Sequence record: PV287706.1 | DNA from: Escherichia phage Midge | Strand: one strand, 5' to 3' | Length of the DNA: 29,617 nt | Part shown: piece after piece, positions 1 to 29,617 of the stretch | Numbering within the stretch: position 1 is the first letter of the stretch | How the letters are laid out: each line of letters opens with the position of its first letter | Translations under genes and position numbers: made by a program | The notes under the pieces: model-generated | Seen by the model: the letters and a program-made list of their open reading frames with translations, nothing else | Database searches by the model: none | What the model was told of the DNA's origin: nothing

Positions 1-10
1 GGGAAAGCAT
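1..10. other. cos: Right half of the cos cohesive-end sequence (gggaaagcat); joins with window end to form ggcgtggcggggaaagcat
   Basis: Joined window ends match the P2-family 19-nt cos (P2 GGCGAGGCGGGGAAAGCAC, recalled from memory) at 17/19 positions; lies just downstream of the portal gene as in P2/186. Confidence 0.6.
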
Positions 11-150
11 TGCGCGCCAGCGGTGGTGCGTAATAATAAAAATTATCGTCTGAGAGCTTCGTGATGCCGCTATCGTGATTGTTGTCGGTTCGTTGGTGGT
101 GTTGTGTGGTCGTGCGCGTGTGGCGAGTCTGAGGCGTGATGGTGGCGGGG

Positions 151-177
151 TATGAAAAAGCCGCCATGCTGGCGGCT
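151..177 (-). terminator. Rho-independent terminator after the portal gene
   Basis: Perfect 8-bp inverted repeat agccgcca/tggcggct (159-166 and 170-177) with a 3-nt loop, followed on the minus strand by a short T-run; sits immediately 3' of the portal stop. Confidence 0.6.
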
Positions 178-186
178 TGAGGGGGA

Positions 187-1209
187 TTACTCCGGGTTGT
201 CGAGGGTGTACTCTTTGAACCTGATGACCTCCATGCCGAGCCAGTCGTTTACCTCCCTGAACCTGTCCTGTAGCGGCGACAGCTCGTTACGCACGAATAC
301 CTTTGCCACCTTCTCAACGTCGCCGGTTGAGCCGATATTCTCGGGCTTGCCGCCCATGAGCTGGAACGGCACGCGGTGCGCGTCCATCAAGTCGGCGGCG
401 CTGGCTTTTTTGATGTTGAAAAAGTCATCCTTTGTGGCGACCTCGCTCAACGGCACGATTTTGATGCCGTCCGGTTTTCCACCGGGAGCGTAGAAAAACA
501 GGTTCTTAAAGTTGCCGAGCCCTTTCGAGTTGCGCATCGCCTCGCGCAACGATTCGACGTCGGTCGCGCTCTGCGCCGGGTCGGTCACATACATGATGTA
601 ACCTGCGTGCGCGCCGTTCCGGTAATACTTGAGGCGGAACAACGTCGCGGCTTCATTCAGCCAGGCGGAATTAAGCGCGCTGAGATATTCGGGCAGGCCG
701 TAAATCTCCTGATTAATATCGGGCTCCAGCAGATGAAACACGGTATCAGGCGCGAACTCATGAGGCAGAGTGAAGTTTTCTACAAACCAGAAAATCGAAT
801 CGTCGACCCCGCGCCGGGTATATTTGGCCGGTGAGGCAAGCAGCTTGATTAACTGGCCGGTGACGCTGTGGCGCTGCTCAAGAAAGGCGTTGCCGAATAC
901 AAGATAGTCGAGCGCAAAGCGGCTGAAATCCTGACGGGATAACAGCGGGTGCGGAATGTAGGTGCTCGCGAGTACGTTGCGCTTAACGTAAATCGGTGAG
1001 CTGTGATGTACAGCAGAGCGCAGGCTCTTTGCCAGCCCGGAGAAACTGACCGGCGGCTCGTACCATTTGCCGTTACTGATGCACTCGACGTAATCCAGAA
1101 TGTCGCGCTTATCGAGTACCGGCACAGGCTCGCCAAAGGTGAACGCCTCCATTTTTTGCGGGGCGCTGGCGGTCAGGGCAACTTGTTTGCGTGGCTTGCG
1201 CTTGCTCAT
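187..1209 (-). CDS. Q: Portal protein (P2 gpQ-like)
   Basis: 340-aa ORF; size, position beside the large terminase and cos, and sequence character match P2 gpQ (about 344 aa). Start overlaps the upstream ORF stop (ATGA). Confidence 0.88.
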   Translation of the reverse strand: MSKRKPRKQVALTASAPQKMEAFTFGEPVPVLDKRDILDYVECISNGKWYEPPVSFSGLAKSLRSAVHHSSPIYVKRNVLASTYIPHPLLSRQDFSRFALDYLVFGNAFLEQRHSVTGQLIKLLASPAKYTRRGVDDSIFWFVENFTLPHEFAPDTVFHLLEPDINQEIYGLPEYLSALNSAWLNEAATLFRLKYYRNGAHAGYIMYVTDPAQSATDVESLREAMRNSKGLGNFKNLFFYAPGGKPDGIKIVPLSEVATKDDFFNIKKASAADLMDAHRVPFQLMGGKPENIGSTGDVEKVAKVFVRNELSPLQDRFREVNDWLGMEVIRFKEYTLDNPE

Positions 1210-1952
1210 GCCGCCACCTCACCCGCTGCAACAGCGAAAGACCAGTCGCAGCCAAACAGCATGCGATAATCATCGTCGCTGTATTCGTGTTTAATTTCCT
1301 CGGGCGCAAAGAGATTGCACCCGCGCTGGCATGCTGCATCCAGAGTGACCGACTGACGCCAGACACCATCTGTGCAAAATACGCTGTCGCCGGTATTGAT
1401 GAGCGGTGACGGTCGATGCCTGCGGGTTGTGCCGTTCCATACCCGGAAAGCGTCATGATTATCAGAGGGCGAGGTAAACATCGTCAGGCGGTGGCGCTTA
1501 TGGCAGGCGATAGCCGCCGCGACTTTTGCCGCCCTTAGCGGGTTATTGAACCATGCGAACTCATCAAGGTAGACGTTACCGGCCAGTGCGGCGCAATGGG
1601 ATTCCTCGCCGACAAAGCTGATAACCGCACCGCCGTCGAGCTGCAGGCTGTGGCCGTTGCTCGTCAGACTGACGCCGACGCGCACCGAAAGGTTATTCAT
1701 GTACATCAGCGCCACGCGCGCATGCTCAATATTGTGAGCAAACCAGACCTGATTATCGCCCGTTGTCAGCGCATCGAGCAGCGCCTCACGGCTAAAGAGC
1801 TGCGTCGCGCCAATCTGGCGAGATTTGGTGATGCTGCGGTCGATATTTAGTTTCCCTACCCGCAACCATGTTGTCTGATAGTCAAAGCTGTCACTGTGCA
1901 GAATATCGGCCAATGCCTGAATCTGGCTTTGTGAGAAAACATTATTTTTCAT
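1206..1952 (-). CDS. Terminase large-subunit ATPase-domain paralog (248 aa), inserted between terminase and portal
   Basis: Translation aligns with the central ATPase region of the adjacent 589-aa terminase: shared SF(D/E)YQ, KSRQIGAT, FSREALL-AL-TG-NQ, Y(L/V)DE(F/I)-W, DG-WRQ-VT, GC-LF, D-D(Y/F)--LF-C. Lacks the N-terminal HTH region and the C-terminal nuclease domain. Start overlaps terminase stop (TAATG), stop overlaps portal start (ATGA). Confidence 0.8.
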   Translation of the reverse strand: MKNNVFSQSQIQALADILHSDSFDYQTTWLRVGKLNIDRSITKSRQIGATQLFSREALLDALTTGDNQVWFAHNIEHARVALMYMNNLSVRVGVSLTSNGHSLQLDGGAVISFVGEESHCAALAGNVYLDEFAWFNNPLRAAKVAAAIACHKRHRLTMFTSPSDNHDAFRVWNGTTRRHRPSPLINTGDSVFCTDGVWRQSVTLDAACQRGCNLFAPEEIKHEYSDDDYRMLFGCDWSFAVAAGEVAA

Positions 1953-29282: not shown

Positions 29283-29298
29283 AAGGATCTATATCAAT

Positions 29299-29400
29299 AT
29301 GTTATCTCTCGTTTATGAAAATCCGTGGACGACGGTTTTTCTGCTGATTGTTGCCAGCATGTGCCTCAATAGTGTTATTGGCGCATTGCGCGGCCAGTAA
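29299..29400 (+). CDS. Possible 33-aa hydrophobic small membrane peptide
   Basis: ATG with an AAAAGGA RBS 11 nt upstream; MLSLVYENPWTTVFLLIVASMCLNSVIGALRGQ has one predicted transmembrane helix; a terminator follows. Below the ORF-track size cutoff. Confidence 0.3.
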   Translation: MLSLVYENPWTTVFLLIVASMCLNSVIGALRGQ

Positions 29401-29420
29401 TCGCGACAAAACCCGACCCA

Positions 29421-29448
29421 AACCGGCACCGTGAATGCCGGTTTTTTT
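29421..29448 (+). terminator. Rho-independent terminator next to cos
   Basis: Perfect 8-bp stem aaccggca / tgccggtt with a 7-nt loop, followed by a 7-T run. Confidence 0.75.
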
Positions 29449-29608
29449 ATGCCATTTTTCCGCGATTTCCCCGTTTTTTAGCCGTGCATGCAACAGGTGC
29501 ATGGTTTTGCATGCGTCAGGCTTGCCCGTTCTGGCTGTGCGCCGCCAGAGCTGGCGCGGATCCAGAGTGGTCATGCAACTGCATTAAAACCGACCCATAA
29601 AGCGGGCA

Positions 29609-29617
29609 GGCGTGGCG
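29609..29617. other. cos: Left half of the cos cohesive-end sequence (ggcgtggcg)
   Basis: Joins with window positions 1-10 to give the 19-nt P2-family cos-like sequence. Confidence 0.6.

Follow-up and report, generated by a model that had tools for sequence, protein, structure and literature searches.

The window, i.e., the whole 29,617-nt stretch of DNA that was analysed, is, with a probability of about 0.93, one full copy of the 29.6-kb genome of a temperate P2/186-family phage, a myophage of the 186/PSP3 group (Peduoviridae, Eganvirus-like) in excised gene order with a P2-family cos. Aligned with phage 186, the window spans 186 base 10 to base 30624 and is colinear throughout: window position 1 corresponds to 186 base 10 and window position 29608 to 186 base 30624, so that the two genomes are co-terminal apart from a 9-nt rotation. 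The records of PSP3, EtG and SEN1 are co-terminal with the window in the same way. The gene order runs from cos through head, lysis and tail genes, D, B, attP, int and CI, and then from Apl and CII through A and the SOS and cargo genes back to cos. All seven hallmark proteins listed for P2-like genomes in PMC13100340 (gpL, gpM, gpN, gpO, gpP, gpQ and gpT) are present (7/7), as recognized by matches to Phage_GPL, Phage_term_smal, Phage_cap_P2, Phage_GPO, Terminase_5/6N/6C, Phage_portal and PhageMin_Tail of Pfam, together with a full tail set, a lysis set, an immunity switch and replicase A. Every ORF outside the 186-homologous blocks belongs to phage families, and the window holds no host DNA, its sole host-identical stretch being a 15-nt attP core that matches the 3' end of rplS. 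No RNA genes were predicted anywhere in the window by Rfam at gathering thresholds or by ARAGORN (tRNA). An earlier note on this DNA had described it as a complete P2/186-family genome free of host DNA and had proposed whole-genome alignment with 186 as a check; the end-to-end alignment and the hallmark proteins bear this description out. Judged from its sequence, this full 186-like genome is probably viable.

The window ends with ...aaagcgggcaGGCGTGGCG and starts with GGGAAAGCATtgcgcgcc, and joining its last 9 nt to its first 10 nt yields GGCGTGGCGGGGAAAGCAT. This 19-mer is identical at 19 of 19 positions to bases 1-19 of 186 (U32222.1), which are annotated in that record as 'cos; cohesive end; top strand cut at 5' end and bottom strand cut at 3' end'. 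It also matches PSP3 at 19 of 19 positions, and the PSP3 record annotates its own cos as 'identical to 186 cos'. P2 cosL is GGCGAGGCGGGGAAAGCAC, from which the window differs only at positions 5 (A>T) and 19 (C>T); identity to the P2 and P4 cos is 17/19. Thus, the previous proposals that the joined ends make a P2-type cos with two differences and that the genome was opened inside cos are both upheld, with the refinement that the cos is that of 186 and PSP3, which is closer than that of P2. The circularised window contains no second copy of the 19-mer with up to four mismatches, and no terminal redundancy longer than 1 nt was found. The chance that an arbitrary opening point falls inside the 19-mer is about 18/29617, or 6e-4. 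The joined ends are contiguous in other genomes: 800 nt across the junction align in one piece (4-800, 92.8%) to a prophage of Escherichia coli CX21 and also to permuted phage records, and an exact 54-mer across the junction is contiguous in 45 IMG/VR contigs, each of which covers it with one unbroken HSP.

The first 9 nt of cos (GGCGTGGCG) occupy 29609-29617 and the last 10 nt (GGGAAAGCAT) 1-10, both on the plus strand. From the annotation of 186 cos and a 99% identical large terminase, the top strand is expected to be nicked at 29608|29609 and the bottom strand at 10|11; 186 is likewise the source for the physical ends and for the 5' polarity of the overhang, and the PSP3 annotation gives the cut positions as well. 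The opening of the record, between bases 9 and 10 of the 19-mer, matches neither of these predicted nicks, so the window ends are not the physical ends. The coordinate origin lies 9 nt inside cos, and the record should be re-origined at 29609 for work on termini, packaging signals or cosmid design. A phage that cuts unlike 186, with blunt ends or a shorter overhang centred on 9|10, would make the window ends true termini, a reading favoured only by the position of the break; we regard it as very improbable, given that the 19-mer and its flanks match those of 186 perfectly or almost so, that the large terminase is 99% identical, that terminal redundancy is lacking and that the annotations of 186 and PSP3 both give 19-nt staggered cuts.

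We propose instead a probable bookkeeping origin for the break at 9|10, and conjecture that a 19-bp terminal duplication was collapsed. End-repaired cohesive ends would give such a duplication in an assembly, and its merging or trimming, with 9 nt lost from the left copy and 10 nt from the right copy, would leave a break in the middle of cos; a terminal repeat trimmed by these amounts gives exactly the sequence of the window. The fact that 9|10 is no physical terminus would also fit a circular template (ligated cos, a replicative form or an excised circle) or a prophage rotated in silico, with the start set near cos by alignment to a reference, and many related phage records are circularly permuted assemblies; the sequence itself does not distinguish a linear from a circular form. 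Such an origin is nevertheless unlikely in our estimate. The records of 186, PSP3, EtG and SEN1 begin with the first base of the 19-mer, not the tenth, and an alignment-based rotation is therefore expected to give a base-1 start; the exact reproduction of the window by trimming a terminal repeat, moreover, suggests linear molecules whose ends had been repaired. The window would look no different if it were a prophage recircularised with care or assembled from a circular form.

The cos site is flanked by the accessory region on the gpA side and by the portal gene, and the genes for both subunits, large and small, of a P2-type terminase are close by. On the minus strand, an intrinsic terminator at 155-178, homologous to 186 tW (164-187), ends the portal/terminase operon, which comprises the portal protein (187-1209; Phage_portal; 186 W, P2 Q) within a block 94% identical to 186, a 248-aa paralogue of the terminase ATPase N-domain (1206-1952; Terminase_6N, 1.5e-23) and the terminase large (ATPase/nuclease) subunit, a P2 gpP homologue (1952-3721; Terminase_5, Terminase_6N and Terminase_6C) that is 99% identical to the 186 protein. 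The 248-aa paralogue has a counterpart in 186 and is absent in several IMG/VR relatives. The plus strand encodes a gpO-like capsid scaffold (3887-4741; Phage_GPO, 8e-106), a gpN-like major capsid protein (ORF 4784-5884; Phage_cap_P2, 6e-148) and the terminase small/endonuclease subunit (5889-6638; Phage_term_smal), a homologue of P2 gpM and 186 R that is 92% identical to the latter. These are followed on the same strand, at 6732-20437, by genes assigned by Pfam and colinear with 186 for head completion, tail X, holin, lysozyme, LysB/LysC, tail completion, baseplate V/W/J/I, tail fibre and its assembly protein, sheath, tube, E chaperone, tape measure, U and D. The late-gene activator B/ogr, an Ogr/Delta zinc-finger protein (20515-20733, plus strand; Ogr_Delta, 2.8e-20) 69% identical to 186 B, is followed by a terminator hairpin at 20734-20757, an intergenic att region and int. 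In packaging, the gpP-like large subunit (1952-3721) and the gpM-like small subunit (5889-6638) would together recognise conserved DNA mainly to the left of the site (29484-29608) and introduce the two nicks, at 29608|29609 on the top strand and, 19 nt away, at 10|11 on the bottom strand; virion DNA would then carry 5' single-stranded GGCGTGGCGGGGAAAGCAT ends, which would re-anneal into a circle after injection.

Comparison with attL and attR of the CX21 prophage places attP at 20759-21010 (plus strand), with its core, TTAGTTCAGACGCTC, at 20879-20893; on the minus strand, the core encodes the last four codons and the stop codon of rplS. Six arm-type repeats of the form [CT]CGCCA[AT] are found in attP, four to the left and two to the right of the core, against 0.14 expected. 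The adjacent int (20975-22024, minus strand) encodes a tyrosine integrase with Int_N and Phage_integrase domains, and genomes of Enterobacter and Citrobacter encode proteins 99% identical to it. An Enterobacter attL carries the identical core; an Enterobacter-type bacterium is the most probable host. The circle would use the attP core (20879-20893) to integrate at the 3' end of rplS. The core thus serves both to place the integration site and, through its identity to the Enterobacter attL, as a hint to the host. In E. coli CX21 the prophage order is yfiB, int-CI ... A, cos, portal ... D-B and rplS, where yfiB and rplS are host genes that lie outside int and B, and the junction of B, attP and int in the window equals the phage arm of CX21 attR, one core and the phage arm of attL. 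The attP is therefore intact, with a single core and phage arms on both sides. The earlier note had taken the succession of ogr, attP and int as the unintegrated order and not that of a prophage with bacterial flanks, and the permuted order of the CX21 prophage agrees with this. The contrary view, in which the window is a prophage region or carries bacterial flanks and its ends match cos only by chance, has next to no probability left and was rejected: related prophages carry int and B outermost and cos in the interior, the opposite of the window; both window ends align to the ends of 186 with an exact 19-mer; the junction is contiguous in the 45 contigs; and the 15-nt core is the only host-identical stretch.

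Beyond int, the minus strand carries a DUF2511 cargo gene (22047-22385) and a CI repressor of 280 aa with two tandem CI-type HTH domains (22394-23236). The early lytic operon (23350-28053, plus strand) encodes an Apl/Cox-like protein, CII, the Fil region, DUF5347, DUF2732, a TraR/DksA zinc-finger protein, DUF5405, a DUF3850/ASCH protein and replicase A (25831-28053, plus strand); by homology to 186, a putative ori is located near 27666. A perfect LexA box, TACTGTATAAATATACAGTA, at 28133-28152 (plus strand) precedes orf60 and a 77-aa DinI-like protein in a region that extends to 28593. The DinI-like protein shares 47% identity with the C-terminal half of 186 Tum, the only half with a homologue here, and orf60 shows no similarity to the N-terminal half. 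Variable cargo without homology to 186 adjoins cos at 28666-29416, a locus known as a hotspot (PMC9122126). It includes ORF143 (28661-29092, minus strand) and ORF63 (29091-29282, plus strand), and these and the other small ORFs of the locus fall in phage PHROGs to which no function is assigned. PADLOC returned no defence-system match for the cos-proximal cargo ORFs and only sub-threshold matches for the DUF3850 protein.

To the right of the cargo, homology to 186 resumes (window 29417-29608 = 186 30431-30624) with a hairpin and T-run at 29423-29448 (plus strand), a homologue of the 186 terminator t95b that ends the rightward accessory region. Immediately left of cos, the 35 nt at 29574-29608 (plus strand), ATGCAACTGCATTAAAACCGACCCATAAAGCGGGCA, form the conserved half of a ~55-61-bp cos core common to P2, 186, P4 and P2-like prophages, and the stretch composed of 29574-29617 and 1-17 aligns without gaps to P2, 186, P4 and P4-like elements. 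Right of the 19-mer, TGCGCGC at 11-17 (plus strand) are the only conserved bases, and similarity between satellites and phages stops there. Among 5426 E. coli genomes, P4-like satellites lose their similarity to P4 7 nt past the 19-mer and P2-like prophages match the P4 junction at -35 to +26 only. P4 and the divergent satellites keep about 125 nt to the left of cos. The latter region contains a block at 29484-29516 (plus strand), GTGCATGCAACAGGTGCATGGTTTTGCATGCGT, in which TGCAT occurs three times (-124, -111 and -101 relative to the nick); a fourth motif follows at 29580 (-29). The block is the densest TGCAT/ATGCA cluster of the genome and is kept in the divergent satellites L132 and L133 and in the prophage L134; the motif positions are the same in the window, 186 and P4, and P2 has -123 in place of -124. 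Between the block and the cos core lies an imperfect inverted repeat, GCGCCGCCAGAGCTGGCGCGG (29539-29559, plus strand), whose CGCCAG...GCGCG part is conserved in satellites. By eye, nothing convincing in the way of two-fold symmetry was seen around the two nicks.

On the right side of cos, a GT-rich tract at 60-154 (plus strand) separates the site from the terminator of the portal operon. Over 81-nt windows, the G+T content of the genome peaks in those beginning at 71-75, with 81.5% against a mean of 49.5% (sd 6.8), and the strongest G>C skew of the genome is found at the same place. The earlier note had pointed to this tract and suggested that it may belong to the terminase recognition region; the tract is real and the strongest of the genome, while the recognition role lacks support. 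As a cluster of Chi sites it was rejected: exact Chi sites are absent from the whole genome, and bases 1-200 hold only three single-mismatch octamers. These lie in the inactive orientation for RecBCD entering at the near end.

That the tract (60-154) is part of terminase recognition, as a cosB-like element to the right of the nick, is improbable in our view. In its favour, it directly adjoins cos with the strongest GT content and skew of the genome, 186 and P2 have a GT-rich tract in the corresponding position, and six IMG/VR relatives in which part of it is replaced retain a shorter and sequence-divergent GT-rich stretch. Weighing more heavily against it, P4, which is packaged by a P2-type terminase, has no such tract; the similarity of P4-like satellites and P2-like prophages breaks off 7 nt past the 19-mer and at +26, respectively, as described above; the divergent satellites conserve their ~125 nt on the opposite side; in PMC9594776 and PMC5694545, a core of ~55 bp is described as the only homology between P2 and P4; and Dodd & Egan 1996, as cited in PMC5694545 and to judge by its title, reports that retrons take the place of DNA between cos and the terminator in 186-related prophages. 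The ~125-nt left region, with its four phased TGCAT motifs and conserved inverted repeat in register in P2, 186, the window and divergent P4-like satellites, may be the real recognition element of P2-family terminases, a possibility that we put forward tentatively, at somewhat less than even odds; its TGCAT block is a candidate cosB-like terminase-binding element. The GT-rich tract would then perhaps be no packaging element at all. As RNA with the sequence of the minus strand, it would consist of 45% C, 33% A, 15% G and 7% U, and it could, for instance, act as a Rho-dependent backstop, with a C-rich and G-poor transcript, that stops late leftward transcription before cos. No experimental definition of the left TGCAT region or of the GT-rich tract was found in the accessible literature, to which the key 1990 paper of Ziermann & Calendar does not belong, and the extent of the functional cos is drawn here from secondary citations in PMC9122126, PMC5694545 and PMC9594776 and from our sequence comparisons. 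Judging by the satellites, the DNA around cos that probably counts in packaging comprises about 125 nt on its left and 7 nt on its right, which is useful for P2/P4-based transducing particles.

The phage is an ordinary new addition to a known group and leaves the current understanding of such phages unchallenged. No phage record is more than 95% identical to the window and no IMG/VR locus more than about 96%. Its nearest relatives are Klebsiella phage RCIP0057, the best match (94.9% over 92% of the first 25 kb), Salmonella phage PSP3 (Eganvirus PsP3; 88.4% over 87% of the first 25 kb and 85.7% over 81% of the last 9.6 kb), Erwinia phage EtG, Salmonella phage SEN1 and phages of Yersinia pestis EV76. 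All are alike in size (29.5-30.9 kb), none is the same phage, and each differs from the window by module-level mosaicism; their records begin at cos base 1 or at arbitrary points, never at base 10. Crude genome similarity is ~66% to 186 and, as alignment coverage times identity, ~69-77% to PSP3. ICTV practice sets the threshold for membership of Eganvirus at a genome-wide nucleotide similarity of 70% or more to a member.

With 186 (Eganvirus ev186, U32222.1), the window shares an identical cos; the succession of t95b-like terminator, TGCAT block, cos, GT tract, tW and portal; the extra terminase-N paralogue between portal and terminase; the order D, B, attP and int; and CII, the Fil region, replicase A and a LexA-controlled operon near the right end. 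The two have a crude nucleotide similarity of ~66% over the genome and differ in the lysis cassette, the tail-fibre tip, the Apl-like protein and several accessory genes. The attP and int of the window target rplS, whereas those of 186 target the ileY tRNA gene; CI has 280 aa with a duplicated HTH, whereas that of 186 has 192 aa; and in place of a full-length Tum and orf97 the window has orf60, the DinI-like protein and other cargo.

P2 (Peduovirus P2) has its 19-nt 5' cohesive end at the same place between an accessory hotspot and the portal gene, with the 55-61-bp core, TGCAT at -123, -111, -101 and -29, and a GT-rich tract before tQ, although positions 5 and 19 of its 19-mer are substituted and its flanks are otherwise only about 75-79% similar. 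P4 and P4-like elements share the ~125 nt left of cos, the 19-mer and the 7 nt to its right, with the motifs in register, a likeness that reflects packaging by the terminase of the helper (PMC9122126). Unlike the window, they possess neither the GT-rich tract nor structural genes, and everything to the right of +26 is unrelated. In the cos of phage lambda (cosN/cosB/cosQ), 5' cohesive ends likewise arise from staggered nicks, and the repeats bound by terminase lie to one side of the nick site. The functional logic of the window cos would be the same as that established for lambda, although the lambda overhang has 12 nt and no sequence similarity, and cosB lies on the side of the terminase genes, whereas the conserved flank in the window lies on the side away from them.

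The right end of the window, ...CATAAAGCGGGCA GGCGTGGCG, and its left end, GGGAAAGCAT TGCGCGCC, join to form GGCGTGGCGGGGAAAGCAT, a 19-mer that matches bases 1-19 of phage 186 (U32222.1) without a single mismatch; these bases carry the annotation 'cos; cohesive end; top strand cut at 5' end and bottom strand cut at 3' end'. In the record of the related phage PSP3, the cos is described as 'identical to 186 cos'. Aligned with P2 cosL (GGCGAGGCGGGGAAAGCAC), the 19-mer departs at positions 5 (A>T) and 19 (C>T), which are the two differences counted correctly in the earlier note; the cos is more precisely of the 186 type, not just P2-like. 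No further copy of the 19-mer with up to 4 mismatches is found in the circularised window, nor is any terminal redundancy found in the window. The chance of an arbitrary opening point falling within the 19-mer is ~6e-4. An 800-nt joined-end sequence aligns in one piece (4-800, 92.8%) within an E. coli CX21 prophage and is likewise unbroken in circularly permuted phage records; the exact junction-spanning 54-mer occurs in 45 IMG/VR contigs, with a single HSP crossing the junction in each. No DNA is absent between the two ends.

The cuts annotated in 186 and PSP3 would place the top-strand nick ahead of base 1 of the 19-mer (window 29608|29609) and the bottom-strand nick behind base 19 (window 10|11). 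The same cuts as in 186 would be expected in the window phage, because its large and small terminase subunits are 99% and 92% identical to those of 186, respectively. The break of the window, at 9|10, coincides with neither nick. End repair that fills the 5' overhangs would give an assembly with the 19-mer at each end, and the window is regenerated exactly if the left copy loses 9 nt and the right copy 10 nt. Judged from the sequence, a trimmed or merged 19-bp terminal duplication is most likely the origin of the 9|10 break. That the window was instead taken from an assembled circular form or a rotated prophage is unlikely.

BLASTN comparison with 186 reveals colinear blocks from window 1 (186 base 10) through window 29608 (186 base 30624), so that the two records are colinear end to end and co-terminal apart from a 9-nt rotation of the window; the same offset is found against the PSP3, EtG and SEN1 records. 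The blocks unmatched in 186 are classic mosaic modules: the lysis module (7415-8596), the tail-fibre tip and assembly genes (12407-14005), the attP/int/CI/Apl block (20700-23752), small early genes (24400-24915 and 25472-25847) and the region from A to cos (28155-29416). All ORFs in these blocks were assigned to phage Pfam or PHROG families, and neither tRNA genes nor Rfam matches were found across the window. All 7 P2-like hallmark proteins (listed in PMC13100340) are found, as are the full tail and lysis sets, B/Ogr, integrase, CI, CII and replicase A.

In the CX21 prophage, which is related to the window phage, the order is yfiB / int - DUF2511 - CI ... A ... cos - portal ... D - B / rplS, which is integrated and permuted. 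B occupies 20515-20733 of the window (Ogr_Delta, 69% identity with 186 B); after it come a terminator hairpin, some 240 nt of intergenic DNA and the minus-strand int gene. Of this intergenic DNA, the left part matches the phage arm of CX21 attR and the right part that of attL. The sequence common to CX21 attL and attR is AGTTAAGACGCTC, and the att core of the window is TTAGTTCAGACGCTC (20879-20893), which on the minus strand reads GAG CGT CTG AAC TAA, the final four rplS codons plus stop. The B-attP-int order, set against the permuted prophage, and the succession of attR arm, core and attL arm therefore support the proposed unintegrated order without bacterial flanks; the accompanying proposal, a complete genome without host DNA, agrees with the seven hallmarks, the phage-family ORFs, the termini shared with 186 and the contiguous junction. 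The integration site is likely the 3' end of rplS. Six [CT]CGCCA[AT] repeats surround the core (four left and two right, 0.14 expected) and are similar to the annotated arm-type Int sites of 186. A reference-genome scan with the window integrase identified 99%-identical integrases in Enterobacter sp. MGH 24, Enterobacter vonholyi and a Citrobacter. The exact core version of the window is found in both Enterobacter attL junctions, with A replacing C in E. coli and Citrobacter; the attP core is the rplS 3' end with the Enterobacter-type CTG codon, and the host is likely Enterobacter-like. At 20858-20893, the phage arm by the core (GGATGTTGCGAAAGCGCGTTAT) is similar, not identical, to host DNA just 3' of rplS (GGATGTCGCTTAAGCGAATCT). 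The phage may supply a substitute 3' flank for rplS.

Terminase of the P2 type packages the satellite P4 (PMC9122126). A search of 5426 complete E. coli genomes with the P4 junction gave matches to P4-like elements over query positions 1 to ~286, with similarity ending 7 nt past the 19-mer, and to P2-like prophages over 226-286 only, or -35 to +26. The latter match corresponds to the '55-bp core' that passages of PMC5694545 and PMC9594776 credit to Ziermann and Calendar (1990). A second block, further left, is also common to all the elements. The window, 186, P2 and P4 each carry TGCAT at -124 (-123 in P2), -111, -101 and -29 relative to the nick, and this array is the densest TGCAT/ATGCA cluster in the whole window. 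It is accompanied in 29484-29608 by a conserved inverted repeat, in register across 186, P2, P4, two divergent P4-like satellites only ~72% identical to P4 (L132 and L133; cos, GGCGTGGCGGGGAGAGCAT) and the L134 prophage of E. coli WCHEC005784 (NZ_CP028578.2 1751568-1752322; cos, GGCGAGGCGGGGTAAGCAT). L132-L134 all keep GGTGCAT...TTTGCATGCGT, CGCCAG...GCGCG, TGCA.CTGCATTAAA, AAGCGGGC and TGCGCG after the 19-mer, rightward of which their DNA is unrelated. Because satellites and phages share the left flank and similarity ends 7 nt past the 19-mer, we infer that the terminase may recognize the left flank (29484-29608), the 19-mer and the 7 nt beyond. The cos sequences of L132-L134 are natural variants in E. 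coli elements, in which defence-like genes (DUF3696, SIR2) begin directly right of cos.

The GT tract right of cos (60-154), to which the earlier note assigned a possible role in terminase recognition, is real and the strongest of the genome: the most GT-rich 81-nt stretches genome-wide start at 71-75 (81.5%, ~4.7 sd above the mean), coinciding with the largest G>C skew. A similar tract lies between cos and the portal-operon terminator in 186 and P2, whereas P4 has nothing resembling it despite P2-type packaging, which argues against the recognition role; the tract is probably dispensable for it. In six IMG/VR relatives, homology is lost at window 77 and resumes at 156, and the gap holds a shorter, sequence-divergent GT-rich stretch and then a small DUF2188 gene (named from E. 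coli annotations). Thus, composition is conserved among relatives and sequence is not. A Chi cluster was rejected as an explanation, because no exact Chi was found and the octamers present are wrongly oriented. As minus-strand RNA, the tract is 45% C, 33% A, 15% G and 7% U, and such a C-rich, G-poor transcript can be likened to a Rho-utilisation site. The tract is directly downstream of the intrinsic tW-like terminator of the leftward portal/terminase operon. That it could serve as a Rho-dependent backstop is a reasonable idea.

At 280 residues, the CI repressor (22394-23236, minus strand) is longer than the 192-residue CI of 186. Two CI-type helix-turn-helix domains lie in tandem (residues ~10-70 and ~99-158) ahead of the CI C-terminal domain, and each shares 35-37% identity with the lone N-terminal domain of 186 CI; a 281-aa CI of the same form is annotated in the CX21 prophage. 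In the putative SOS operon (28133-28593), a 60-aa ORF (phrog_1993) and a 77-aa DinI-like protein lie behind a perfect LexA box (TACTGTATAAATATACAGTA). The DinI-like protein shares 47% identity with the C-terminal half of 186 Tum, and its 77-aa homologue in Klebsiella phage RCIP0057 is annotated 'tum'; no counterpart of the N-terminal half of Tum is detectable in the operon. Between the portal and large terminase genes is a 248-aa paralogue of the terminase ATPase N-domain (1206-1952, minus strand), similarly placed in 186; L103, L108, L110 and other IMG/VR relatives have just ~60 nt there. A 71-nt GC-rich, hairpin-containing element (28595-28665) is 98.6% identical to 186 30343-30413, far above neighbouring DNA, and sits at the edge of the variable cos-proximal cargo, a locus known as an anti-phage hotspot in P2-like phages (PMC9122126); it may be a recombination boundary of this hotspot. 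The cargo (28661-29282) comprises a 143-aa ORF (phrog_2266, minus strand) and a 63-aa ORF (phrog_2454, plus strand), head to head with a 2-nt overlap, function unassigned and without PADLOC or Pfam matches. A DUF2511 gene (22047-22385, minus strand) lies between int and cI and would presumably be transcribed with the lysogenic operon; just upstream of replicase A, another small accessory gene (25532-25840, plus strand) codes for a DUF3850/ASCH-domain protein.

RCIP0057 matches best (94.9% over 92% of the query), with PSP3 (88.4% over 87%) second and 186 (90.8% over 72%) third. These sequence comparisons place the phage in the 186/PSP3 group as a new member at species level; its crude nucleotide similarity to 186, ~66%, is borderline for genus placement, for which PSP3 is more comfortable. 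What goes beyond known P2/186 biology is limited and only mildly new: the registered TGCAT array common to satellites and the GT tract conserved in composition, and on the side the CI with duplicated HTH, the split Tum-like SOS operon and the rplS att site mimicking host downstream sequence. In its cos, gene order, attP logic and packaging mechanism, the phage follows textbook P2/186 biology.
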